Positions 1 to 45,934 of a stretch of 45,934 nt of DNA are shown here, one piece after another. This stretch comes from a virus. Lineage: Duplodnaviria > Caudoviricetes. Each line of letters opens with the position of its first letter. Positions within the stretch are counted from its first letter, which is position 1. A model generated the notes under the pieces. The model was given only the letters and a program-made list of their open reading frames with translations. It made no database searches and had not been told where the DNA came from. The translations under genes were made by a program, and so were the position numbers. Location of the stretch: positions 1 to 45,934 of the IMG/VR virus record IMGVR_UViG_3300037313_000916; one strand, written 5' to 3'.

Positions 1-18
1 GAAAGACCGGAGCGACTG

Positions 19-186
19 ATGGGGCACTCGCAGCGCTTTGCGGCCCAGGTCTACGTTGAGATGGCTGATGGTGTCAGCATCGAGTCGATCCTTATGGCGA
101 TGCGCGTGGAATTCGAGGGCGCGCAGCGCCACATGGAACGGCAGATCCGCGAATGGTTTCAGGAACGCGCCGTCAACGACGGTTGA
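19..186 (+). CDS. hypothetical protein (55 aa)
   Basis: Not in ORF track. MGHSQRFAAQVYVEMADG...AVNDG*, with GGAG 7 nt upstream and a TGATG overlap with an upstream gene cut off by the window edge. Confidence 0.55.
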   Translation: MGHSQRFAAQVYVEMADGVSIESILMAMRVEFEGAQRHMERQIREWFQERAVNDG

Positions 187-211
187 CAAACGAGTGCGGG
201 TATGACAGAAT
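183..211 (+). promoter_or_regulatory. sigma70/SigA-type promoter, probable late or sRNA promoter
   Basis: TTGACA (183-188), 17-bp spacer, extended TG at 203-204, CAGAAT (206-211). Confidence 0.75.
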
Positions 212-216
212 TGTGG

Positions 217-430
217 GTGGGAAGGTACGCCTTCTCTTGGTCGCGTCTGCGCGACGGTCTGCCGTGGCCTCCTCCCACCACGGGCACACCGAACCCCGCC
301 GCACAGGCCCTCAACTCTCCGCCCACCGTTCCAACCTCCTCCCAATGCGGACGGTACAGCGCGGTCATGGGCCGGCGCGACCTGGCCCCAAGCGCGTCGT
401 TTCCTCCCGGCGCCGCGCTTGGGGAGATTT
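217..430 (+). ncRNA. multi-hairpin RNA with CCUCCUCCC (anti-SD) loops, cuckoo/CcsR-like
   Basis: Hairpins 260-286 (loop CCTCCTCCCA), 325-355 (loop contains CCTCCTCCC) and 386-424 (11-bp stem, loop contains TTCCTCCC), plus short 5' hairpins. Lies directly downstream of a consensus promoter. Confidence 0.6.
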
Positions 431-460
431 CGCCTCAACCGGTCACCTTCGGAGCGGCCA

Positions 461-637
461 ATGCTGGACCTCTACACCAAGAACGTTCAGCGGCTCCTCA
501 CCCGAGAATTCCCCGTGCCCGCAGTCATTTGGCTTGGTGACGGCCATCCCATGACCGATAACGGGAAACGGCAGATCGCGGCGAACCTTGCGCACATGCT
601 GCACGGCGTGCTGCTGATCGACAAGGACGCAGCATGA
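461..637 (+). CDS. hypothetical protein
   Basis: ATG at 461 with GGAG upstream. First of a chain of overlapping small ORFs (634-783, 780-968, 1003-1185, 1178-1336) leading to terS. Confidence 0.5.
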   Translation: MLDLYTKNVQRLLTREFPVPAVIWLGDGHPMTDNGKRQIAANLAHMLHGVLLIDKDAA

Positions 638-1328
638 AACGCGTCCGTGTGTTTCTTCGGTGGCGCAGAGCTGGCGCCAGCCGACGTCTCGCGTGGATGG
701 TCGCAACGAGACGGCACCTGATCGACACGACCGACCGGGCCCCTACCAAGTCGCGGAGCGCACGCCGCTCGCGTGAGCGGTGAGCGAGCAACGGACCATC
801 CTGAGGCTCGAAGCCGAAATACGAGCACTGGAACGCGAGATCGCGCACTTACGATGGGTTACGAGCTCACAAGCCGACAGGTTATGCGCAGCAGAGCGTG
901 GTGCATCTACAGCCTCGCTCTCACGACCGTCGTGGCCTGGTATGCCGTCGAGTCCGTTCGATTTCTGAAGCAGATCGCTCGCGACTACCCAGACCTCCGC
1001 GCATGAGCGAACTTCAAGGCCTCAAGAACCTCCTCGCGTCCAGTGGCCCGCTGCACGGCATCGCCGCGTCACCCGCTCGCGACGTCTTCGCTACCGACGC
1101 CGACTACCAAGCCGCATACGACGCGTGGTGGCTGCGCACGCTCCGCTGGAATGCGACCTGGCGCGACATCCGAGTCGATGACTGAACTGATCGGCAAGCG
1201 CCTGGTCTACCCCGTGCTCCTGCCGTTCCCGATCTGGCGATTCGGGCCGCTGTACGGACGCCTTGACGGGCGTTACATCGGCGATGGCTGGTGGCCGGAT
1301 CGCTACGGGATACGCGAGGTCAAGCGCG

Positions 1329-1814
1329 ATGGCTGAAACGAAGCCCGCGAGGCGCTACACCCCCGAAGACAAACGACGCGGCCTCATCGCCCTCCTCGTC
1401 GCCGGCAACGGAAACGCCGCCTCAGAACAAACCGGCATCCCACGCCAAACCCTCGAGAACTGGCGCAACACCGAAACAGAGCTGTACGCCAAACTCTCCC
1501 AAGAACACGGCCAGCTCATCGACCACGCGATCACCGCACAAGTCCGAGAAGCCGTCGTCACATACGGCCAGATCGAACGCCAACTCCAAGAACGCGCGCT
1601 CGACAACATCACCCGCATCGACGCCAGAGACCTCCCGGCCGCACTCAAAAACATCAGCGCCGCCAAAGCCCAAAGCACAGACAAGCTCCTGCTGCTCACA
1701 GGCAGAGCAACAGACCGCATCGAACACGTAGACGCCAGAGACCTCCTCGCGGACATCCGCAAGATCGTCCAGCCCTACGCCATAGACAGCACAGCACAGG
1801 AACTCAGCTCCTAA
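1329..1814 (+). CDS. terS: terminase small subunit (N-terminal HTH)
   Basis: YTPEDKRRGL...AASEQTGIPRQTLENWR helix-turn-helix, then a helical oligomerisation-type region. Lies upstream of terL. Confidence 0.7.
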   Translation: MAETKPARRYTPEDKRRGLIALLVAGNGNAASEQTGIPRQTLENWRNTETELYAKLSQEHGQLIDHAITAQVREAVVTYGQIERQLQERALDNITRIDARDLPAALKNISAAKAQSTDKLLLLTGRATDRIEHVDARDLLADIRKIVQPYAIDSTAQELSS

Positions 1815-2267
1815 CGGCGATGAACGGGGAAGACGGCCACCCGCTGCCCGACACAAACAACGTCGTGCTGCGGCACATCCCCCCGCTATTTGGCTAGCTG
1901 AAGCGGGGTTCGTGCGCCCGAGTAACTAGGCGGCAGCCCCACGATCCTTGACCGCGAGCTCTCGCTGATCAAGGTTAGGTAGCTGTTTGGGTAGCAATGC
2001 CCGCTCTTTTGGCTTGAACACAGGTGTTTCGTCCTGCCCACATGGCAGCACACACCGTGAGATGCCTGTCCTGGCCGCAAAGAGCTCCTCTCGGCCGGCA
2101 AACACGGAGGGGGAGGGGAGTGTCGACCGCGACGCCACCCCCCTCAATCAATTTCTAGCTAGCCCGGGACATTCTGGGGTTCCCTAGGCCAAGTTGTAGG
2201 TCTACTGTGTCGCTCTCTGCGGGATTCCTCGCTTCGTTCCCTCCGGTCGGAAGGTCACATTCGTCTG

Positions 2268-2645
2268 ATGTGCAGCGTGGATGGGTGCGATCGGGCCGTT
2301 AAGACGCGTGGGATGTGCGGGAAGCACTACTTGCGGGCGTACAGGGCTGGTTTGGTTGAGATCAAGCGACATACGAAGTCGCATAGCAAGCCTCGTATCC
2401 GTATCCGCGTGAACGGTTGTTGGGATTGGCGCGGTACTCGGTTGAGGGGTCGGCCCGTTACGGGGCGGGGGGGGCGGATGTACCTGGCTTATCGGTGGGT
2501 GTGGGAGCAGACGCATGGCCCGATTCCCGAGGGCCATCAGTTGCATCACCTCTGTCACAACCGGCTGTGCGTGAACCCGGCCCATCTCCAGCCGATGGCG
2601 CCCGTTGAGCATCGTCTGGCTCATTGGGCTCCCGTGTCGCTCTAG
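2268..2645 (+). CDS. HNH endonuclease with N-terminal Zn finger
   Basis: CSVDGC...GMCGKHY Zn motif; CWDWRG...AYRWVWE...GPIPEG..LHHLCHNRLCVNPAHL is the HNH_3-type signature. Confidence 0.9.
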   Translation: MCSVDGCDRAVKTRGMCGKHYLRAYRAGLVEIKRHTKSHSKPRIRIRVNGCWDWRGTRLRGRPVTGRGGRMYLAYRWVWEQTHGPIPEGHQLHHLCHNRLCVNPAHLQPMAPVEHRLAHWAPVSL

Positions 2646-2656
2646 GCGCCCCCCGT

Positions 2657-4174
2657 ATGTCTTCTCTTGCGGTGCAGCTTCGGGAGCTTGAGGCGTTTCC
2701 TTTGGAGCGTTTGCCTGAGGAACAGCGGAGGCTTGTTCGGGAGAAGCTTGGGGTGTTGAGGGGGGTTTTGGCTGCGAATCCGTTGCAGTTGGCGGAGCCG
2801 TATCCGAAGCAGCGGGGGTTTCTGGCTGCGCGGGAGCCTTTGAAGGGGTTTTTTGGCGGGAATGGTGCGGGGAAAACCTGGATCGGCACGTTGGACGATT
2901 GCATCCAGCTTGTGGATCGTGTGGTGGTGCCTAAGCATCTTCAGGAGTTCAAGTTTTGGGAGCCGCCGTTTTTTTTGCGGGTGGTGGCTCCGAAGCAGAA
3001 GATTTTGGACACGCTGACGTTGCCGCAGTTCCGGGCGATGCTTCCTGCGTCGCAGTTGCGGGGCGGGTCGTTCGATAAGGCTTATAAGGGTTCTGAGGGC
3101 AAGCTGTACCTGGCGAACGGTTCGTGGGTGTTGTTCAACACGGCGGATCAGGATCGGGACGCGCACGCTGGCGTGGAGCTCCATCGTTGCCGGTTTGATG
3201 AGGAGCCTGAGGGCGAGCATGGTCGCGGGATCTACACGGAGAATGTGGCGCGTCTGCGCAAGTTTCTCCCGCATGCGCAGATCAGCTTCACGATGACGCC
3301 TCTCTTGGGCCTGACGTGGACGTTCGATGAGGTGTATGAGCGGCGTGACGACCCGACTGTTCATGTGACGGTCGCGTCGATGCTCGACAACCCTCATGTG
3401 AACGCTGAGGCGACGATCGCCCGGATGGGGCATTTGTCGGCGGAGGAGCGTCGTGCGGTGGTTGAGGGCGAGTTCGTCCATTTCCATGGTGCGGTGATCG
3501 ATCTTCGCGAGAAGCACATCGTTCCGACGCCGGAGAAGCTGCATGTTCGGGGCCTGGATGTGTATGTGGGGATCGACCCGGGTGTCGCGAGGGGTGGGGT
3601 GGTGTGGTGCGGCTTTGATCGCGACAACGTTCTGTTGGTGTTCGACGAGCTGTACCCGGAGGGGTTGACGGTCGAGCAGATCGCGGGTCAGATCCGCGCG
3701 AAGAACCGGGAGTGGGGGATCGAGCCGCAGTTTTTCGTGATCGATCCGTCGGCGAGGAACCGGTCGTTGGTGAATGCGCAGTCGGTGGAGGCCGAGTTTC
3801 AGCGTCATGGGATTTTTCCGATCCATGGTCAGAACGATCGCGCCGCAGGGATTTTGCAGCTTCGTGGCCGGCTGGAGCATGGTGGCTTGCTGGTCGCGGA
3901 GAACTGTCAGGCGGTGCGGTATGAGGCGAAGCGGTGGCTTGTCGCGAAGGACGAGAAGTCTTCGGAGGAGTCCGCGTCGGGCGATCAGTTCGTGACGAAG
4001 GGCCCGGATCACACGTGGGACCCGATTCGGTATTGCGCGATGGAGCGTTTGTGGTTTGAGCCGGTGCGGCCGAAGGTCCGTAGGGGTGGGCGTCATTGGG
4101 ATGAGATGCCGGCGTGGGATGGGCAGTCGTTGGTTGGTTCGGTGGACGCGCCGCCGTCTGGTGTTTGGTCTTAG
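2657..4174 (+). CDS. terL: terminase large subunit
   Basis: Walker A GGNGAGKT, Walker B RFDEEP, coupling motif TMTP, nuclease VYVGIDPG and DHTWDPIRY. ATG at 2657 preferred over TTG at 2624. Confidence 0.95.
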   Translation: MSSLAVQLRELEAFPLERLPEEQRRLVREKLGVLRGVLAANPLQLAEPYPKQRGFLAAREPLKGFFGGNGAGKTWIGTLDDCIQLVDRVVVPKHLQEFKFWEPPFFLRVVAPKQKILDTLTLPQFRAMLPASQLRGGSFDKAYKGSEGKLYLANGSWVLFNTADQDRDAHAGVELHRCRFDEEPEGEHGRGIYTENVARLRKFLPHAQISFTMTPLLGLTWTFDEVYERRDDPTVHVTVASMLDNPHVNAEATIARMGHLSAEERRAVVEGEFVHFHGAVIDLREKHIVPTPEKLHVRGLDVYVGIDPGVARGGVVWCGFDRDNVLLVFDELYPEGLTVEQIAGQIRAKNREWGIEPQFFVIDPSARNRSLVNAQSVEAEFQRHGIFPIHGQNDRAAGILQLRGRLEHGGLLVAENCQAVRYEAKRWLVAKDEKSSEESASGDQFVTKGPDHTWDPIRYCAMERLWFEPVRPKVRRGGRHWDEMPAWDGQSLVGSVDAPPSGVWS

Positions 4175-31999: not shown

Positions 32000-32437
32000 C
32001 TAGCGCGGCTTTGGGCGCTTTCGCCCGGTTGGAGGCTGCGGCGTCATCTGATCCGCAGTCGTTGCGAGGTTAGCTAGGGCCTCTACGGCCTTGGAGAGGG
32101 CATCGAGCTGGGCCACGATGGCCTGTTGTCCAGTCTCGATGCTCTCCAAACGCTCCTCCACGCCGTCGCCGTCGCCGGAGAACGCCCCCATGAGGTCTGG
32201 GGTTTCCCTCGGCTCGTCGTCGCGGGCGTAGAAGTAGCTGACGTCCACATCAAGCGCCTCGGCGAGCTTCTCAAGGTACCGCTCGCTCGGCTTGTAGACG
32301 CCGCGCTCCCAGTTCGAGACGTGCTGGTTACTGACGGCCGCCGGCATCCGGTCGGCTAGCTCGCGCTGGTTCAGACCGAGTTCTTCCCTGCGTGCGCGCA
32401 GGCGTTCGCCGATCCGTACGGCGATCTCGCTGGCCAT
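32000..32437 (-). CDS. CI-like XRE repressor
   Basis: IGERLRARREELGLNQRELA...VSNWERG...P....LEKLAEALDV. Start at 32437 supported by a leaderless promoter. Confidence 0.85.
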   Translation of the reverse strand: MASEIAVRIGERLRARREELGLNQRELADRMPAAVSNQHVSNWERGVYKPSERYLEKLAEALDVDVSYFYARDDEPRETPDLMGAFSGDGDGVEERLESIETGQQAIVAQLDALSKAVEALANLATTADQMTPQPPTGRKRPKPR

Positions 32438-32444
32438 GAGCTGC

Positions 32445-32473
32445 AACCTAAGCGCTTCTAGCTGCGCTGTCAT
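32445..32473 (-). promoter_or_regulatory. leaderless repressor promoter (PRM-like)
   Basis: Minus strand ATGACA-17 bp-TAGGTT, then 7 nt to the ATG at 32437. Confidence 0.65.
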
Positions 32474-32492
32474 CGCTGTTCCGTTAGGAGAC

Positions 32493-32520
32493 TTGACACT
32501 AGTCGGCATGCTGCTAGAGT
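32493..32520 (+). promoter_or_regulatory. early lytic promoter (PR-like), leaderless
   Basis: TTGACA-16 bp-TAGAGT with extended TG, 8 nt before ATG 32529. Palindrome TGTAGCTACA at 32520-32529 covers the start region. Confidence 0.7.
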
Positions 32521-32528
32521 GTAGCTAC

Positions 32529-32774
32529 ATGACGACTAATGGCAAGCCTACCCGTCTCGCCGCTACCGTAGGCCGCAACATTCGGGCTGCGCGGCTCTCC
32601 ATGGGCTTGCGGCAGCACGATCTCGCGGTGGCGCTCGGGACCGGCGATGCGATGCGCATCAGCCGGTGGGAGCGCGGCGAGCATCGCCCGAAGGACGACA
32701 ACCTTCTGCACCTCGCCCAGGTGCTCGGCCGCGACGTGGCGTGGTTCTACACCGACCACGAGATGGCGGCATGA
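32529..32774 (+). CDS. Cro-like XRE regulator
   Basis: VGRNIRAARLSMGLRQHDLA...ISRWERG..P....L.HLA..LG; divergent from the repressor. Confidence 0.85.
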   Translation: MTTNGKPTRLAATVGRNIRAARLSMGLRQHDLAVALGTGDAMRISRWERGEHRPKDDNLLHLAQVLGRDVAWFYTDHEMAA

Positions 32775-32993
32775 ATCTTCCTGATCAGGGGAAGCGGCGG
32801 TCGGGGGGCCCGGGGCTCCAACTCCACCCCTCGGCCGCCACTGATTCGAGGTCCTCATGAGCTACGTGCTGCCGTGCGCCGTCTGTTTCGCCGGGCCCAC
32901 GCTGATGATCTTCATGACGTGGGTGTGTGACTGGTCCGCTCGCCAGACCCCGGTCTGGACCGACGTGCCGGTTTGGGGCGAGGAGGAGGAAGC

Positions 32994-33791
32994 ATGACCG
33001 ACGCGATCGACACGACCGCAGTTGAGGTCGGCACCGAGGTCGCGGTCGTCGAGCATCATCAGCCCGCTGGCCTGTTCCGCACCGAGGACCCCGTTGAGGT
33101 CGTCGAGAAAGCCGTCCGTGTCGCTGACGCCCTCAAGGCGGTGATCGTGAGCAAGCAGTTGTTCACGATGATCCAGGGCAAGGCGCACGTCGGTGTGGAG
33201 GGATGGACTCTGCTCGGGTCGATGCTCGGCGTGACCGCGGTTTGCACGCACACCGAGAAGCTCGACGACGTGACGTGGAAGGCGACCGTCGAGGCGCGCG
33301 ATCAGCACGGCCGGGTTGTCGGTCAGGCGGACGCGTTGTGCTCCGGTCGCGAGAAGCGTGGCCCGTGGAAGAACGCCGACGACTACGCGCGCTGCTCGAT
33401 GGCGCAGACCCGCGCGACGTCGAAGGCGTTGAAGGGGCCCCTTGGCTTTGTGTTGTCGCTCGCGGGGTACGCGACGACCCCGGCGGAGGAAATGACCTTC
33501 GCTGAACCCGACTTGCCAACGCCGGTTTCCTCCTCTCCGGCGCAGGCAAGTGGCGGCCGGCCCGTGCCCCCCGCGGGACCGGCCGCCCAATCTTCCGAGG
33601 ACCCGTGGCCCGATCGGACGGTCGCGAGGGTCAAGAAGCTCGGGATGCAGACTGACATTCGCGACAAGCTCGCGAACATCGGTGTGGTCATCCCGAAGGG
33701 CGCGCATGTCGCGCCTGTGCTGCCGCGCCTGACCGGCAAGCAGCGCCAGGAGATCGACGGGTGGCTCGGGCTGTTGGAGCGGGCGGCATGA
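32994..33791 (+). CDS. putative single-strand annealing recombination protein
   Basis: IQGK.HV.VEGW, SMAQTRA.SKA, TPAEEM; strong RBS; early-arm position. Exact family uncertain. Confidence 0.55.
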   Translation: MTDAIDTTAVEVGTEVAVVEHHQPAGLFRTEDPVEVVEKAVRVADALKAVIVSKQLFTMIQGKAHVGVEGWTLLGSMLGVTAVCTHTEKLDDVTWKATVEARDQHGRVVGQADALCSGREKRGPWKNADDYARCSMAQTRATSKALKGPLGFVLSLAGYATTPAEEMTFAEPDLPTPVSSSPAQASGGRPVPPAGPAAQSSEDPWPDRTVARVKKLGMQTDIRDKLANIGVVIPKGAHVAPVLPRLTGKQRQEIDGWLGLLERAA

Positions 33792-35339: not shown

Positions 35340-35720
35340 GTGGCCTGGGTGAAGATCGATGACCAGCTCTACACCCATGAGAATCGCTGGGAAATCGGTC
35401 TCGACGGCATCGGGTTGTTCGTGGTGATGCTCTGCTACTGCAACCACAAACTGACGGACGGGCTGGTGCCGCGTGCGTTCGTTCAGAGCCAGGTGTCGCG
35501 GCCGGACCGGCGTGGTGCGCTCAAGTCGCTGTTGAAGGTCGGGATGGTCGCTGAGGTGGAGGACGGCTACGAGGTCGTGGGCTACTTGAGGTTCCAGCCG
35601 TCGAAGGAAGACGTGTTGAAGCGGCGTGCTGACCGGTCTGCCGCTGGTCGTAAGGGCGGCGAGAAAAAGGCCCAAAACCGTCTAGCTGTTGCTAAGCAAG
35701 GTGCTAAGCATGCTGCTTAG
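35340..35720 (+). CDS. replication initiator (short, N-terminal winged-helix type)
   Basis: MAWVKIDD...GLF...YC...LTDG.VP...YL.FQPS...R...GRKGG pattern of actinophage RepA-like proteins; ends inside the iteron repeats. Confidence 0.7.
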   Translation: MAWVKIDDQLYTHENRWEIGLDGIGLFVVMLCYCNHKLTDGLVPRAFVQSQVSRPDRRGALKSLLKVGMVAEVEDGYEVVGYLRFQPSKEDVLKRRADRSAAGRKGGEKKAQNRLAVAKQGAKHAA

Positions 35721-35825
35721 CAAGGTGTCTAGCTGCATGCCTACCCCGTATCCCGTAGAGGTAGTTGGTACTTCAAACGCTAGTGATTCCTCAAAACAAT
35801 CCTCTTTTGTTACGCCAACTGATAA
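35681..35825 (+). repeat. putative replication origin: iterons + AT-rich tract
   Basis: TGCTAAGCA twice, inverted TGCTTAGCA, TCTAGCTG twice, AGCAAGGTG twice, then an AT-rich stretch at ~35770-35825. Confidence 0.65.
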
Positions 35826-37052: not shown

Positions 37053-37277
37053 ATGGGTGATCTTGTCTCGTTCCCGGTCGCTCGTGCGGCCGGCGCCCTG
37101 AACTTCGAGGTTACGAAGGCGGAGCTCGCTCAGCGGTGGCGCGTGTCGGAGCGGTGGATCGAGCTTCGCGTCCGTGATGCGGGTTTGCCGCGTCGCAAGG
37201 ACCCACATAGTCGTCTTGTCCGGTTCAATCTCGCTGAGTGCGAGCTTTGGCTGGAGCGACGGAGGAGGGCGAGCTAG
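37053..37277 (+). CDS. xis: excisionase-like winged-HTH protein
   Basis: VTKAELAQRWRVSERWIE....GLP......VRFNL..CE.WL; abuts the integrase. Confidence 0.75.
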   Translation: MGDLVSFPVARAAGALNFEVTKAELAQRWRVSERWIELRVRDAGLPRRKDPHSRLVRFNLAECELWLERRRRAS

Positions 37278-38432
37278 ATGGCGATCGGTAAGCCGAGAGG
37301 CAAAGACAAGATGGTGCCGGTCTTTGTCTACGACCCGGCGACCCAGAAGAAGCGGTACGTCGGCTCCGCGCCGAACCCGCGCGCAGCGCGCCTCCTCGAG
37401 GCGAAGAAGAAGGTCGAGTTTTCCGAGCGCGCCGGGAACGTTCAGGGCACCAAGGACTGGACGGTCGCCGGGTGGGCTCAGCACTGGCTTGATCAGCACC
37501 ATGGCGAGAACACGCCGCGCCCGGAGATCACGACGTGGCGCAATAACGAGCAGCTCCTCAGGCGGTTCATCGCCTTGTATGGCGGCCGGAAGGTCCGCTC
37601 GATCACTAGGGATGAGGCGCACGCGTGGGCGAAGACCAAGCCGCACGAGGCGAAGGCGATCGCCGCGATGTTCAACGACGCCGTGAGGCAAGGCCATCTG
37701 GACGTCAGTCCGTTCAGCAAGCTGGGGCTGTCGCGTGGCAAGGGCCGTGCTGACATCCATCCGTTGGGCGAGCAGGAAGTCGTGGCGCTCGCCGATATCG
37801 CTCGTCGCTCGCTCGGAAGCTACGGCGAAGAGTTCGCCCGGTTCATCACGGTCGCCGCGTGGACGGGGATGCGCCCCGGCGAGCTGTGCGGCCTCGACTG
37901 GCATGAGGTCGATCTTCCGTGCCGCGAGATCAAGGTGTGGTTCGCTCGCCGCAACGACGGCTCGAGGGTGCGAACGAAGACGAAGGAGAACCGCGAGATC
38001 GAGCTTGCGGACGCCGCCGCCGAGGCTCTCGCGATGACGCCTCCGCAGCAGCGGACCGGCCCCGTGTTCCTGTCGCGCACTAAGAAACCGATCCGGCCGA
38101 ACAGCCTGCGGACCGACTGGCTGACCGTCCGCTCCGCGTTCACCGCCAGCCTGCCGGGCGACCACTGGCTACCCCGCCGGCTGCGGCAGAACCCTGACGA
38201 CCAGCTCGACCCGTATGAGCTGCGGCACTTCTGCGGGTCGTTCCTCGCTGATCAGGGCTGCACGATCGAGGAGATCGCCGAGCACCTCGGGAATACCCCG
38301 GAGGTCTGCCGGGTGTACGTCCATGCGCACAAGGATCGCGTCAGGGCCAGGATCAGAGCCGCGTTCGGCAACAACGTCAGGACCATCCGGCCCGCCGACG
38401 ACCATGGGTTTGGGGAGCAGGTGGGTAGCTAA
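37278..38432 (+). CDS. int: tyrosine integrase
   Basis: TGMRPGEL.GL.W..VD, RTKT, YELRH, EHLGNT, VYVH; N-terminal arm-binding domain. Confidence 0.93.
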   Translation: MAIGKPRGKDKMVPVFVYDPATQKKRYVGSAPNPRAARLLEAKKKVEFSERAGNVQGTKDWTVAGWAQHWLDQHHGENTPRPEITTWRNNEQLLRRFIALYGGRKVRSITRDEAHAWAKTKPHEAKAIAAMFNDAVRQGHLDVSPFSKLGLSRGKGRADIHPLGEQEVVALADIARRSLGSYGEEFARFITVAAWTGMRPGELCGLDWHEVDLPCREIKVWFARRNDGSRVRTKTKENREIELADAAAEALAMTPPQQRTGPVFLSRTKKPIRPNSLRTDWLTVRSAFTASLPGDHWLPRRLRQNPDDQLDPYELRHFCGSFLADQGCTIEEIAEHLGNTPEVCRVYVHAHKDRVRARIRAAFGNNVRTIRPADDHGFGEQVGS

Positions 38433-38649
38433 ATGCCTGCATCTTGGCTCTATCGCTTGGTCTGCGCCTCGTTTCACCCTGCCGGGGGCGCTACACCGAA
38501 CGGGACGCATCCCTTGTGTTCATCGGGCGTTACGGCCTGTTTCGGCGGGTGGCGTAGCGAAGGGACACGAACCGGTGCGAACGGGAATTCGCGGGTCGCT
38601 CGCTCCCTAGGGCAGCAAGTTGGGAAGCGAGTTGCTACCCAGCTACCCA
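38411..38649 (+). other. attP: tRNA-3'-end-like core plus arm-type repeats
   Basis: Core CCTGCCGGGGGCGC (38478-38491). (T/A)GGGNAGC at 38411, 38422, 38609 and 38621; inverted GCTACCCA at 38634 and 38642. Confidence 0.7.
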
Positions 38650-39128: not shown

Positions 39129-39428
39129 GTGAGGGTCGTCCCCAAGCTTGAGTGCGAGTGCGACCCCACCGGCACGGGACCGCACCTGATCGGCTGCCCG
39201 CTGTTCGTCCAGGGCAAGTACGCGACGGCCGACCTCATCGACGCCATCCATGGGCTCGATGAGTACCGCGCGGCGCTCGTGCAGGCCGAGGAGGCGCTGT
39301 CGCGTGCTCAGACGTATATCGGGCTCCTGCGCCAGTACGACCCGGAGCTGTCGATGCTCGTCGCTGCTGCCCGCGAGAGAGCGAACAAGGCGCTGGCTAC
39401 CCCTCAACAAGCGCGGGAGTCCGAGTGA
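39129..39428 (+). CDS. hypothetical protein (CxC...H..C)
   Basis: GTGA-coupled ORF. Confidence 0.5.
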   Translation: MRVVPKLECECDPTGTGPHLIGCPLFVQGKYATADLIDAIHGLDEYRAALVQAEEALSRAQTYIGLLRQYDPELSMLVAAARERANKALATPQQARESE

Positions 39429-39976
39429 CTCGCTACCGCACGATCGTAGCTGACCCGCCTTGGCCGTACGAAGACGGCTTCATGGTCGGCCATGGGCGAG
39501 GCAATCTCGAACGCCGGCCGTTGCCCTACGCCGCCATGACGCTGGAGCAGATCGCAGCCCTCCCGGTCCACGAGATCACCGACCGAAATGCAAGGCTGTT
39601 CGTCTGGACGACAAACCGCTATCTCCCCGCCATATTCGAGATCATTGAGGCGTGGGGTTTCGAATACCGGCAGACGTTGGTCTGGCACAAGCTCGATGCC
39701 AACATGCCGGGCTCCGTGGCCCCCAACAGCGAGTTTCTGCTTGTCGGCCAGCGCGGGACCCCCGGTCGTCTCGCCACGCTGAAGTCGTCGGTCATCGCTG
39801 CGCACACTCACTGCGCTTGGAACAGCAAGGGACACAGCCGCAAACCGGAGTGCTTCCTCGATTACATCGAGCAGGTCAGCCCCGGACCTTACGTGGAGCT
39901 GTTCGCGCGTCGTGCTCGCTTCGGCTGGGATTACTGGGGCGACGAGTCGCTCGGGACGGCGGAGGTCGCAGCATGA
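39425..39976 (+). CDS. MT-A70 family adenine methyltransferase
   Basis: YRTIVADPPW, LFVWTT, WGFEY...LVW.K, HSRKP, ELFAR...GWD.WG.E. Confidence 0.92.
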   Translation: MTRYRTIVADPPWPYEDGFMVGHGRGNLERRPLPYAAMTLEQIAALPVHEITDRNARLFVWTTNRYLPAIFEIIEAWGFEYRQTLVWHKLDANMPGSVAPNSEFLLVGQRGTPGRLATLKSSVIAAHTHCAWNSKGHSRKPECFLDYIEQVSPGPYVELFARRARFGWDYWGDESLGTAEVAA

Positions 39977-40635: not shown

Positions 40636-41022
40636 GTGAGTCGCAACCCGTACCAGAAGATCCTCTTCTGTGGATCGCGCGACTGGACCGATGAGCAGCC
40701 GATCGCTTCGGCGATCCACGGGCTGAGCAAGGGCAGCATCGTGATTCACGGAGGCTGTCGCGGCGCCGACATGATCGCCGACAAGTACGCGCGCGCTCGC
40801 GGCCTTCACGTCGCCCGCGTGGACGCTCTGTGGAGCTACTACGGCCACTACGCCGGCCCGAAGCGCAACGAGGCGATGTGCTTGCTGGGCATCGACTTCG
40901 CGTTCGCCTATCCGCTCAGTGGCTCAGGAACGCAGGGGATGCTCGATCTCCTGGCGCAGTGGAACGTTCCGCACTACATCCACGGTGGGGCTACAGCTTT
41001 GCCTTCCAAGGACCCGTCGTGA
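40636..41022 (+). CDS. SLOG-family (YspA/DUF2493-like) protein
   Basis: ILFCGSRDW, VIHGGCRGAD..A, AGPKRN..M, SGT..M. Confidence 0.85.
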   Translation: MSRNPYQKILFCGSRDWTDEQPIASAIHGLSKGSIVIHGGCRGADMIADKYARARGLHVARVDALWSYYGHYAGPKRNEAMCLLGIDFAFAYPLSGSGTQGMLDLLAQWNVPHYIHGGATALPSKDPS

Positions 41023-42096
41023 AGCTCGAGGACGCCCAGCGCTGGCGGCACGACACGGAGAACGCTTCCGCGCCCGTGCGCCATCGCGCCGTCCTGGAGC
41101 TCATCGCGGCCGGTGAGTACCTCTCGTACTCCGACGCCAAGCATGCCGCCCGCCTGGCGCTCTCTGGCGCTCACAAGCGGTGCGGAGAGACCAACACCGG
41201 AGGAACACCATGAGCGACTACCACCGTCATAACCCCGAGCTGGCCGAGGCGATCGATCGCATCTTCGGTGTTCACGTCACGCCGCTGCCCGACGTTGAGC
41301 AGGACTACGACGTCGAGCAGCTCGAGCGGGACATCGAGACGTGCAGCGAGGCAGCACTGACCCCGGAGGATGAGGCGTACGAGCGGGCTGCGTTTCGGTG
41401 GGGCATGGACGGCAAGGGCGCGCTGTGACCATCGCATCGTCACCGAAGCCATGACCCGCCGGATCAAAACGGGCGAGGAGGAAGACGTTCACACCCATTG
41501 GCGACGCGTGCTGTGCTGGACGCAACGCGCGGGTGCTTGTGTGGCTGTGAAGCGTCGCACGAACCGGCGGGAGCGCCAGGAAGCCAAGGCCGCGATGCGC
41601 GACGAGCTGGCTATGCCAAACATCTCGGAGCCCGAATGAGCGCGTCGCAAGATTCGCATAACGTCACCGACACTGCGGCGAGCGCGGCCTTGCAGCGTCA
41701 GCTCGCTCACCGCGACTACCTCCTGGAGGAAGCGCGCGCAGAACGCGACCGCTGCAAGGCCGCGCTCGCTGAGGCGCAGCGCAACGCGAGGGAGCAGGGC
41801 GACCTGAAGGCGGCTGCGTGGCGCGATGCCGATCGGTTGCGCGAGGAGGCTGACCGCTACCGCGATGCCCTTGAGGATGTCGTGGCGTTGAAGGACTGCC
41901 CCGAGAGCGTCGCGGCTGCCGCGGCTGCCGCGTTGCATTGGAAGGACCGACCCGAGGGAGAGAACGCATGCTGATGGTCTACATGATCGCTTTCCAAGTG
42001 ATGGTGGTTGACGTGGGTGAGATAATGTGTAGGACAAAGAAATCGCCCCCGCGTCGCGCTAACGACCGGGGGCATGGCGCCGAAGGGAAGACTTCG

Positions 42097-42288
42097 ATGC
42101 AGGCCAAGCGTAACGGTCCGGCCAATCTGTTTGTCCGCAAGGGCGCCGATGGCTGGGTAGTGGAAGAGCGCCATCCTGGTGATGTGGCGGGGATCTGGCG
42201 CGGCGGCTACTTCCGCACGAAGGCCGAGGCCACGTCGCACCAGCGACGCCTCTTGGCTGAGCGTGACGCGCAGGGGCGTGAAGCATGA
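42097..42288 (+). CDS. small hypothetical protein (DUF2188-like pattern)
   Basis: V....DGW.VE...F.TKAEA; start codon lies inside a stem-loop. Confidence 0.45.
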   Translation: MQAKRNGPANLFVRKGADGWVVEERHPGDVAGIWRGGYFRTKAEATSHQRRLLAERDAQGREA

Positions 42289-42391: not shown

Positions 42392-42676
42392 GTGACGTTA
42401 CGAGTTGGACTCGATGAACTGCTCCCGATCAAGACGGCAGCCCGCGGACTGCCCGCTCAAATCGACCGGCTCACCAGTGGCGACGTGGACCAGCTCGTCG
42501 TCACGCGCCGTGGCGAGCCTCGGGCAGTCCTCATCACAGTCGAGCGGTTCGAGGCCCTGCTTGCGCTGCAAACGGTGATAGATCCCGAGATGGTGTGCAC
42601 TTGCACACCCGAGACTTCGGAGGGCTGCTCGAGCTGCAAGCCGACCGATGCTCTTGCGGAGGAGCCGTCGTCATGA
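42392..42676 (+). CDS. Phd/YefM-family antitoxin-like protein with C-terminal Cys cluster
   Basis: LPIKTAAR.LP..ID......LVVTRRGEPRAVLITVERFEAL; CTC...CSSC tail. Confidence 0.75.
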   Translation: MTLRVGLDELLPIKTAARGLPAQIDRLTSGDVDQLVVTRRGEPRAVLITVERFEALLALQTVIDPEMVCTCTPETSEGCSSCKPTDALAEEPSS

Positions 42677-45191
42677 CCGGACCATCGCCTCGTATCGAGA
42701 GCGACGTTCTGCGGATCGCCGGGGAGCACGCGAGCGAGCTCGCAGACATTCTGAGGGCCACCCGCCAGGACCGAAGGGCTGACCTTGTGGACGAGTTCGC
42801 GGATGCGCTGCTCGAGGCCGCCGACGGTCGCCCATACGGCGACGACGACTGGGCGGCACTCCTCGATGATCTTGCTTCGCGCGAGACGGCCGCTTTTGGT
42901 CAGGAGGAGGAGTGATGGCCTGCAATATCTCCATGTCCTGCGTCATCGAGCAGGTCCACGGATTGCCGCAGGGAACGATCGCCAAGATCGGCGGCGAGGC
43001 TGCGGCAGAACTTGCGCTGGCGATCCGTAGGGACCCGAGCGATCCGCTCGTCGTGGCGATGGTGGACGCTCTTACGAGGGAGCAGAAGCCGTGAACTATC
43101 TCTTCGCCATCGTCGCCGGCGCGTTCACGCTCTTGGCCGTGTCGGTCGACCCGCTATGGGCTTCGCCCGCCGTCATCGCCGTGTGCGCGTCCGTGGACTC
43201 CTCGGTGCGGAAGGCGGGTGGCTGATGTCCCAGCAAACGAGCAGCTACCCGAAGGTTCCGCCGCGCGGGCCGGTGCCCGATGAGGCGCTGCCAGCGGTGC
43301 GGCTGATAAGCGACATGGTGTGGGGCGCTCGGTATGTGCCCGGCGAAGGGCCAGTGCATCACGCGGGCGGTTCGTACTGGCACGACCGGCTGCTGCACCT
43401 CGCCGACCAATGGGAGAAGCAGGCCGCTGCCGCCCGAGTCGTCGCTGCGCTGCTGCCCGCCGCCGATGCTCAGACCGGGGCGGCGAGGTCGTGAAGCACA
43501 CGGACGATGAGATCGAGGCTGGCCTCCGCTCTGTCAAGGACCGCTTCGTGGCAGGAACGCTGACGCTTGAGGAGGCGCGAGACGCAGACCGCTACTGGCG
43601 CGCGCAGAAGTGCGTCAACCGTGGCTACGTCAAGCCCGAGACGGCTGGCGTGATCGCCCCGATGCCCTTCAGTGAGATGGCAGCTTTGACCGGAAAGGGG
43701 TCGTCGTGAGGGTGCTGCCGTCGCGGGTTCGCAGGCGGCTCCCCCGCCGCTACCTGGTCTGGAGCTACATGCGCGCCTTCAAGCGCGAATACCGACGTCT
43801 GGAGAACGAACGATGAACACCCTGAACCGTCTCGGCGCTCGTCTCGGCAACTGGAACGATCGCGTCCACCCGTACGACATGCGCAGCGAGCAGAGCCGAC
43901 GCCACAGGACCATTGACCGCATCGCCTCATGGCTCTGTCTGCGATGAGCCGCGCCCCTGCTTTGAGCCGGGAGCGGTCGTGAGCGGGCAGCGGCAGGACT
44001 CGCTGCTCGAACAGCTCGCCGACGTCGCCGACGAGGCCGACCGCATTGGCTGCCGGGACGCCGCAGACTGGATTCGCCGACAGATCAAGCTCAAGCGCAT
44101 GATCACGCCGGAGATGCGCCAGCGCACGATCGACTTCCTGAGGGAGTACCGAGACTGATGAGTTCAGGCCAAAACGACGGCGCTGTCGCGACCAAGATCG
44201 GCACTGCGCCGATCTGGACATGGTACGAGCGAGATGGCGCCAACTGGTTCTCGGTGCTGTTCGTCGATGGCTGGAAGTTCGAGTACATCGGGCAGAACTC
44301 CTCGGTTGAGCTCTTCCCGGGATGCACGATCACCGGGCTATGCATGGCTTATCCGGCGCCAACGGACCTCGATCGGTGGCTCACGCAAGGCGGGGTCACG
44401 ATCGCAGAGCACACTCTTGAGGACCTCGTACACATCGCCGAGTTGGAGGCTAGGACAGATGCCTCGTGATCCAAGCGGTAGCGAGATGAACGGCTTGCGC
44501 GAGATCATCAGCGCATCGGCCGGCCAAATCCACTCGATCGAGATGCCGCCCGAGAATGCCACCCAGGAGGAGTACAACGCCTGGTGGGCTCGTACGCACT
44601 GCTGGCGCGTCGAGATCAGGGACGTGCAGAACTGATGCCGTCACACGAAAGCAAGGGTCGCGATGCCTGAGTTCGAGCACATCGACGACACCCGCCAGCG
44701 TCTTCTCGCACGCCTGAACTACATGCTGCGCAGCCGCCCGGTGATGGAGAGCGACGACATCCTCATGGAGCAGATCCTTGACGCGAACGCCTGGGCACTG
44801 TGGACCGACTTCAACCGCGACGTGATCGCCCAGTACATCGTCCGGCAAATCGAAGACGAGTTCGGCATCGACCTGATCGAGGCGATCAAGGCCGCACGAT
44901 GACCGGACGAGTGCGTCTCTCTACTTGCGGTAGCCCGTGAGCGGCCAATTCACAGAGGACGACATCGGTGCCCCTCAGCCGGTGATCGACAAGGACGACT
45001 GGCCGGAGATCGACTTCGACGGAGCGGTCTTTAGCTGGGTGCCGCATACCGGCGATTACATCGTCGTGACGGCCCATATGCCAGCAGCGCTGATCTCGCG
45101 GCAGGAACTAGAACGCCAAGCGTCAGCCACGGGCCGCAAATGGAAGTCCTGCCGCTTCAGGTTCTTCTTTTCGGCGAGCCAAAGTGGCTAG
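42673..45191 (+). other. run of small, translationally coupled hypothetical genes
   Basis: Chain of 55-105 aa ORFs, many with ATGA/GTGA overlaps (e.g. 42673-42915, 43491-43709, 43913-44158, 44158-44469, 44663-44902, 44937-45191); no recognisable motifs. Confidence 0.5.
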
Positions 45192-45543: not shown

Positions 45544-45934
45544 ATGGGCGACGAACTGCTCCAGCGCGCCATACAAGTTCTCACTGCCCTGCGCACCCTC
45601 AGCGAGGTACCGGCGCATACCTATGACCGTGAACAGAGTTCGCATACCGCGGAGTCGACGGTCCTGGTGAAGTTCACGACAGCGGGGGATCTCGCGCCTG
45701 CTGAACCTTCGCTGTTTGAGTACCACCGCGGCCAGATCAACGCCTCGAACACGGCTGACGAACTTGAGCTGCGCATTCTGGTCGCGGAGGAGGCCCTACG
45801 GGGCGCTAGGAAGCGTTCTGGGGCGGTCACCCAACGGATGACCCCAGAAGACATGCGTGAGCACGTACGCGGCCTTTATGGGCTTGGGCTGTCGGCGGTG
45901 GAGATCGCGTATCGCGAGGATCTCCCGATCAAGT
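45544..45934 (+). CDS. putative late transcription regulator with C-terminal HTH (truncated by window end)
   Basis: Open frame MGDELLQRA...VRGLYGLGLSAVEIAYREDLPIK runs off the end; it is the last early gene before the late promoter on a circular map. Confidence 0.5.
   Translation, partial: MGDELLQRAIQVLTALRTLSEVPAHTYDREQSSHTAESTVLVKFTTAGDLAPAEPSLFEYHRGQINASNTADELELRILVAEEALRGARKRSGAVTQRMTPEDMREHVRGLYGLGLSAVEIAYREDLPIK

Follow-up and report, generated by a model that had tools for sequence, protein, structure and literature searches.

The window, by which we mean the whole stretch of DNA analysed (45,934 nt), is a 45.9 kb phage genome with a GC content of 64.6%, present in soil and rhizosphere DNA runs. 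Contigs from two runs bridge position 45934 to position 1, and the record lacks 28 bases at this junction, inside the likely late-regulator gene. Because contigs cross the 45934/1 junction, the genome is circular and the locus described here lies at the border between the early operon and the packaging and structural genes. The source is a circular temperate phage. Genes for terminase, portal, scaffold, capsid, tail adaptor and lysis proteins are found at 2.6 to 31.7 kb, and the early operon, which includes the integrase gene, runs from 32.5 kb to the end of the window. In circular order, the border consists of the likely activator gene, a 55-aa gene, a promoter, a leader and small genes, followed by terS and terL. 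The features are listed below.

45544..45934, plus strand: likely late transcriptional activator, last but one of the early genes, its role assigned by position; reads on across the window end, where the TGA at 17-19 would be its stop codon
19..186, plus strand: 55-aa gene; stop codon overlaps the -35 box; TGATG coupling at 17-21, GGAG upstream, positive codon score
183..211, plus strand: near-consensus promoter of the sigma-70/sigma-A type; TTGACA at 183-188, 17 nt, TG before CAGAAT at 206-211
217..430, plus strand: predicted RNA of ~210 nt; start placed from the -10 box and end from hairpin 3; fold predicted
219-236 and 240-255, plus strand: two short 5' hairpins without the motif, predicted fold
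255..290, plus strand: predicted anti-SD hairpin 1; 10-nt loop 268-277, CCUCCUCCCA; opening cost 0.01 kcal/mol
325..354, plus strand: predicted anti-SD hairpin 2; 12-nt loop 334-345 with CCUCCUCCC; caps a longer weak stem
386..424, plus strand: predicted anti-SD hairpin 3; loop 402-408, UCCUCCC; strongest stem, -25.6 kcal/mol
461-637, plus strand: first gene of the likely late operon, 58 aa; GGAG site at 451-454; codon score +0.17

Four properties of this locus had been proposed in the initial annotation from the sequence: a near-consensus promoter (TTGACA-17-TGnCAGAAT), a position at the early-to-late boundary, ~240 nt without a credible ORF, and three hairpins exposing anti-Shine-Dalgarno (anti-SD) loops. 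All four were borne out. In a consensus scan the promoter was the sole promoter-like site in 1-3000 and one of six genome-wide; a score of 10/12 consensus positions plus TG was reached by two genome sites only, 183-211 and the cro promoter. It follows the likely activator gene, and the circular order leads from the early operon into terS/terL. We regard it as the likely late promoter, probably driven by an activator. A search of 100-217 for a repeat array showed nothing beyond one 6-mer. The product of the activator gene had no Pfam, PHROG or NCBIfam match; its homologues were found in related phage records, in G009 (1 of 2000 shuffles as good), in G007 (27 of 2000), and also in G004 and G012, and BLASTP against G007 alone was weak (E 0.042). 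For the product of gene 461-637 the only match found was itself, and the SD of this gene is predicted to be partly paired in a local hairpin.

The leader behind the promoter is 244 nt long and non-coding. Two overlapping ORFs, 202-540 and 153-554, were rejected as products on scores of -0.23 and -0.26 per codon and GC3 values of 0.64 and 0.67, near the genome GC; this codon model is weak, as a real small-terminase-like gene scores -0.06. Neither ORF had a PHROG match. When the region was folded, the motifs lay in hairpin loops at the positions first described, CCTCCTCCC at 268-276 and 335-343 and TTCCTCCC at 401-408. The predicted unpaired probability was 0.94-1.0 across the first two loops and 0.89-1.0 over 402-408, with U401 mostly paired (0.34). 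The loops are predicted to remain open (mean 0.83-0.99 unpaired) when folded together with downstream sequence. No terminator with a U-tail was found 3' of the hairpins, the stem of hairpin 3 being followed by only three U. An assembly artefact was ruled out by identical contigs from two further soil/rhizosphere runs, which cover 184-334 and 199-569 with 0 differences.

In order to determine whether such an arrangement arises by chance, the motif was counted and simulated. TCCTCCC occurs three times on the plus strand of the genome, always in this cluster, and once on the minus strand. Among order-4 Markov genomes, three TCCTCCC within 160 nt were found in 0 of 1000, and two within 80 nt in 28 of 1000. 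The genome holds 24 close 7-mer triplets, and this is the only one with all copies in hairpin loops; as a look-elsewhere control, 60 genomes were simulated, and a triplet of any 7-mer lying wholly in loops was present in 2 of them. The triple motif is thus non-random, far beyond chance. Folding energy by itself was just modestly unusual overall, with z of -1.42 for 210-460, -2.62 for 217-430, -0.5 to -1.1 for three sub-pieces and -3.6 for hairpin 3 (384-426).

We compared the leader RNA with known RNAs and phage modules. With the cuckoo/ar14 RNAs of Alphaproteobacteria (RF02344, NfeR1; CcsR1-4, RF02791) it shares CCUCCUCCC loops borne by three hairpins whose stems are unrelated, and the cuckoo-like anatomy noticed at the outset stands; a UTR origin is a further possible likeness. 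Measured against the published description (PMC4615179), which has 2-4 hairpins with a CCUCCUCCC loop, the leader contains two exact motifs and one UUCCUCCC, all predicted to be unpaired. Its hairpins of 36, 30 and 39 nt with 11, 8 and 15 pairs fall within the described size of 24-50 nt and at least 6 bp. The loops are 10, 12 and, for the third loop in the lowest-energy fold, 7 nt, with a described range of 9-27 nt (PMC4615179). The spacing departs from the description: 34 and 31 nt lie between hairpins, compared with 10 nt or fewer, and the motifs are 58 and 57 nt apart, compared with 12 plus 12-34 nt in the skeleton matcher (PMC4615179).

Membership of the cuckoo family, which the initial annotation had cited for comparison, had to be given up. 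Rfam gave 0 matches in the whole window at the gathering cut-off. The ar14 model (RF02344) scored 14.1 bits (E 3) against a cut-off of 58.8, while true ar14 members in viral contigs score 72-109 bits, and CcsR1 (RF02791) had no match up to E 10. The linkers of 31-34 nt instead of 10 or fewer also argue against membership, as does the lack, among the 76 proteins scanned, of the DUF1127 neighbour typical of the CIN1 cuckoo subgroup. The leader RNA further differs in its two extra 5' hairpins, its missing U-tail and its origin in a phage that probably infects an actinobacterium. Up to E 10, Rfam returned four weak matches, including miRNA, malK-III and ar14, the last being the sole sRNA family; we took these three as chance or motif-only. 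C-rich loop RNAs have been argued to arise convergently (PMC4615179), which fits a cuckoo-like RNA outside the family.

Three other systems share part of this design. The loops of the 6C sRNA are C runs, while those of the leader RNA are CCUCCUCCC. The two are alike in their C-rich hairpin loops, in pairing that would need no chaperone and in likely host phylum (PMC6486639); they differ in that the leader RNA is phage-encoded and had no Rfam 6C match at gathering or up to E 10. The c4 antisense RNA of P1/P7 is a phage RNA that blocks a ribosome-binding site via loop sequences (PMC12197685), as the leader RNA would. It has a specific target, the ant mRNA, and acts in an immunity circuit, whereas the leader RNA carries a generic anti-SD seed with many candidate targets and has no Rfam match. 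In the Ltr (RinA/ArpU/LtrC) modules of Gram-positive phages, a small regulator is encoded close to where the early cluster finishes, and a promoter follows ahead of terS (PMC3753634), as here. In the window, however, the upstream protein lacks a family match, no repeat array was seen and a long structured leader is added. The element in the leader is real and non-random, and it would work like cuckoo/ar14 or 6C RNAs. What would make it special is an exact cuckoo seed outside the Alphaproteobacteria and a placement in a late leader that relatives appear to have without it.

Relatives of the RNA were sought by several routes. Single-protein locus searches of viral contigs with terL or terS gave no relative, and one with P0003 gave seven distant viral relatives. 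Terminase and capsid alignments yielded 35 loci from metagenomes, 11 and 9 from viruses (3 new records) and one from a genome, so that the phages reached are distant, sharing 27-67% identity; the closest terminases, 82% (P0002) and 71% (P0003) identical, belong to contigs of up to 44 kb. No homologue of the anti-SD RNA was seen in the retrieved terminase/capsid loci listed, and most of the metagenome loci end short of the promoter. The scan of terminase records covered 9 of 11 (G005 and G008 left out), with G010 scanned over 20,000 of its 21,220 bases. Loose motif triples in G004, G007, G009 and G010 were judged by eye to be chance. A stricter hairpin scan of the relatives found none alike, at low power, as it missed two of the three anti-SD hairpins in the window itself. 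Motif scans of viral contigs (23 of 64 parts) returned repeats, either coding or tandem, along with canonical ar14 RNAs; a promoter-anchored scan of viral contigs gave eight loci, none alike, and blastn against cultured phages gave 13 short matches at chance level. With no homologue found in these searches, the case is weaker than that of candidates for which homologues are available.

These scans also brought up RNAs of separate interest. Canonical ar14 RNAs (72-109 bits) are present on IMG/VR viral contigs (L004, L089, L096, L115 and similar). Strong CCUCCUCCC-loop hairpins scoring below the ar14 cut-off (26-44 bits) occur on viral contigs at L013:1481-1587, L110:278-362, L067:1452-1583 and L048:1485-1606, some of them with spacer hairpins between the motif hairpins, as in the leader RNA.

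The corresponding border could be compared in related phages. In both G007 and G012, the stop codon of the activator homologue overlaps a -35 box, which lies 17 nt before a TG-extended -10 box. The leaders behind these promoter-like sites are 68 nt in G007 and 55 nt in G012, and in both a CCUCC-type word is absent and no terminator-like U run was seen. After the leader comes a Cys-rich first gene, with terS further on. G007 has two hairpins behind its promoter-like site, as the window has two short 5' hairpins. Compared with both relatives, the window has the extra 55-aa gene between regulator and promoter, a leader of 244 nt and a promoter nearer consensus. No clear promoter was seen at the corresponding place in G009 and G004. 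The anti-SD loops are missing from the same-position leader in G007 and G012, and they therefore look like an add-on; the module may have been either gained in the window phage or lost in the relatives. Relatives with the same promoter position and no module indicate that phages can acquire or shed modules of this kind.

Capsid matches among cultured phages were to phages of Microbacterium, Cellulosimicrobium or Arthrobacter in 11 of 12 cases, at only 24-30% identity. A host search by integrase found no named close relative, and in the Atlas the integrase fold leans to Actinomycetota and is otherwise uninformative on the host. The capsid relatives, mostly actinophages (11/12 records), and the apparently leaderless cI and cro genes indirectly support the actinobacterial host first suggested; it is probably a member of the Actinomycetota. 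Leaderless genes are common in Actinobacteria (PMC3160421). The two immunity genes are as follows.

32509 to 32000, minus strand: cI-like gene; HTH_3 match; start 8 nt after a -10 box
32529-32774, plus strand: cro-like gene; HTH_3 match; start 8 nt after a -10 box

With this 8-nt spacing from the -10 box, cI and cro are likely leaderless and would lie beyond the reach of the predicted RNA, in agreement with the earlier proposal that leaderless mRNAs are spared. Their promoters are back-to-back and overlapping (32493-32545), in a region that by eye seems rich in short palindromes. G009 has a related cro region.

We also calculated how well the loops would pair ahead of early and late genes. The test used our own gene calls with starts chosen blind to the SD, comprising 41 early and 38 late genes, to the exclusion of the junction-crossing gene, gene 19-186, cI and some very small ORFs. 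Median predicted loop pairing was -10.7 kcal/mol for early and -6.95 kcal/mol for late genes (p 0.0013; p 0.010 with coupled genes only). Perfect 7-8-nt matches to the loops preceded 6 of 41 early genes and 0 of 38 late genes. With match-favouring starts and unpaired loop bases only, matches of at least 6 nt were found in 11/41 early versus 1/38 late genes, one of the 11 being probably a false start. Early-gene matches of at least 7 nt numbered 6/41 to the loops versus 1/41 to the 16S tail. The early/late bias was equally strong against the 16S tail (p 0.0004), and in two annotated lytic actinophages it was absent (p 0.54 and 0.50). When run automatically, the test gave an early-over-late bias in G009 (p 0.0012; 9/56 versus 2/45) and in G007 (p 0.00035; 9/42 versus 0/35), neither of which was found to hold such an RNA; this version takes in false junctions, so the contrast is inflated in all three genomes. 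In G007 and G009, sites of the GGAGG(AG) type are commoner ahead of early genes than ahead of late ones. The best predicted targets are listed below.

37261..37268, plus strand: best of 17 predicted sites; GGAGGAGG ahead of integrase (gene start 37278); duplex energy -17.5, net -15.6 kcal/mol with opening included
32982..32989, plus strand: second-best predicted site; GGAGGAGG before a 265-aa early gene at 32994; net -11.5 kcal/mol
42903..42910, plus strand: predicted site by sequence match; GGAGGAGG before an early gene at 42915

Among the 17 sites tested with opening costs, those of the capsid and scaffold genes had net energies near -1.5 kcal/mol. Once mRNA structure was counted, the net energy was near zero at 2 of 9 early sites, and the late site 29267 reached -7.8. 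In the stretch 37053-38432, the integrase gene, which has the strongest anti-SD match, lies on the same strand inside the early operon, behind a small HTH_17-like (excisionase-like) gene.

The suggestion that early ribosome-binding sites are favoured over late ones therefore holds in part. Complementarity to early genes is stronger, but the same bias in two relatives without the RNA led us to reject it as specific proof of targeting; as these relatives caution, targeting does not follow from an SD match at an early gene by itself. The bias may be a lineage trait or a gene-calling effect. The matches show that there are targets and that the late genes would be spared; they do not tell us that the RNA has shaped the sites.

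We believe, with confidence a little better than even, that the leader releases a trans-acting, cuckoo-like anti-SD small RNA that blocks the ribosome-binding sites of early genes. Late transcription would start from 183-211 under the upstream activator, and the ~210-nt species would result from processing or from incomplete termination at hairpin 3. Ribosome-binding sites of the GGAGGAGG type would be bound by its open loops of the CCUCCUCCC type, shutting down early-gene translation once late transcription begins. The leaderless cI and cro and the weak-SD late genes would escape, and strong host SDs would be hit too. Several features of this scheme have precedents. In NfeR1 the same exact loop motif silences mRNAs, with three redundant loops and without Hfq (PMC10746234). 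The 6C RNA of high-GC Gram-positives pairs through C-rich loops without chaperones (PMC6486639), and pairing here may likewise need none. Some cuckoo RNAs derive from a 5' UTR (PMC8034643).

A fuller version, in which a temperate phage of Actinomycetota gained the cuckoo-motif module in its late leader, is more tentative, and we place it somewhat below even. In that account the module would couple late transcription to shut-off of the early operon and integrase, with leaderless cI/cro and SD-poor late genes escaping; it would be convergent on the alphaproteobacterial CCUCCUCCC seed and would have been added to a lineage whose early GGAGG sites were already strong. Anti-SD loop RNAs are known from cellular bacteria. 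If the account is true, temperate phages have an early-to-late (or lysogeny) switch at the level of translation, and the split among leaderless, strong-SD and weak-SD genes has a use. In the portions of the literature covered, including a 2025 review of phage sRNAs (PMC12197685) and PMC3765725, no phage RNA was found that silences a whole gene class in this way; most subscription journals lay outside that coverage.

The promoter itself suggests an alternative, since being nearer consensus than the relatives' sites it may not be restricted to late expression. At 10/12 plus TG, it is as strong as the cro promoter. The same anti-SD RNA could then be constitutive: the promoter would fire in the lysogen, transcription would stop at hairpin 3, whose stem reaches -25.6 kcal/mol, and the RNA would silence leaky early or lytic mRNAs including integrase, until the regulator drives read-through. 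The lambda Q/pR' layout offers an analogy for regulator-driven read-through into late genes. The cI gene looks leaderless and would be spared, and the c4 RNA of P1/P7 is an example of a loop-pairing immunity RNA (PMC12197685). We nevertheless consider constitutive synthesis unlikely. Only three U follow the hairpin 3 stem, no terminator-like U run was seen in the relatives' leaders of 55-68 nt, and a general anti-SD RNA that is always made would be expected to tax the host.

A leader that acts in cis is also unlikely, and we rate it below constitutive synthesis. The hairpins might determine whether the late transcript terminates, how it is processed or how stable it is, or they might be recognized by a protein specific for C-rich loops, with the anti-SD appearance being secondary. 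An antitermination leader, the alternative offered in the initial annotation, keeps some probability because hairpin 3 is not followed by a U-tailed terminator. They do sit between the promoter and the first late gene with no terminator found, the SD of gene 461 is predicted to be partly paired, and the early/late bias needs no RNA. However, a near-identical loop on each of three unrelated stems is the hallmark of redundant pairing seeds, the loops are predicted to stay open when folded with downstream sequence, and the module is missing from the corresponding site in G007 and G012.

The RNA could instead act mainly on strong-SD mRNAs of the host, giving partial host shut-off, with the phage early sites incidental. 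Its loop is a generic one, cuckoo and 6C RNAs act on numerous targets in the cell, and late phage genes with weak SDs would benefit. The perfect 8-nt matches at the phage's own early genes speak against this reading, which we hold to be improbable. That the leader has no RNA function, being chance C-rich repeats in a spacer or encoding ORF 202-540, would agree with the missing homologue and the modest folding z, but is very improbable given 0/1000 and 2/60 in the simulations and an ORF that scores as non-coding without a family match. We thus retain the released trans-acting RNA as the preferred reading of the locus.

Other parts of the genome gave minor observations. Clusters of CTAG/TAGCTA words, mostly intergenic, were found at 1890-2170, before the HNH/terminase genes; at 32070-32530, in the immunity region; at 35680-35790, after a putative replication gene; and at 38430-38640, after integrase. 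They are possible operator, origin, packaging or att sites. In the early region, 41990-42100 contains TTGACG and an AT-richer patch followed by a GC-rich hairpin, which the consensus promoter scan missed; this is possibly a second promoter or small RNA. Early accessory genes at 39425-39976, 40636-41022 and 42392-42676 encode an MT-A70 methyltransferase, a SLOG-family protein and a protein with a weak Phd/YefM antitoxin-like match, respectively.
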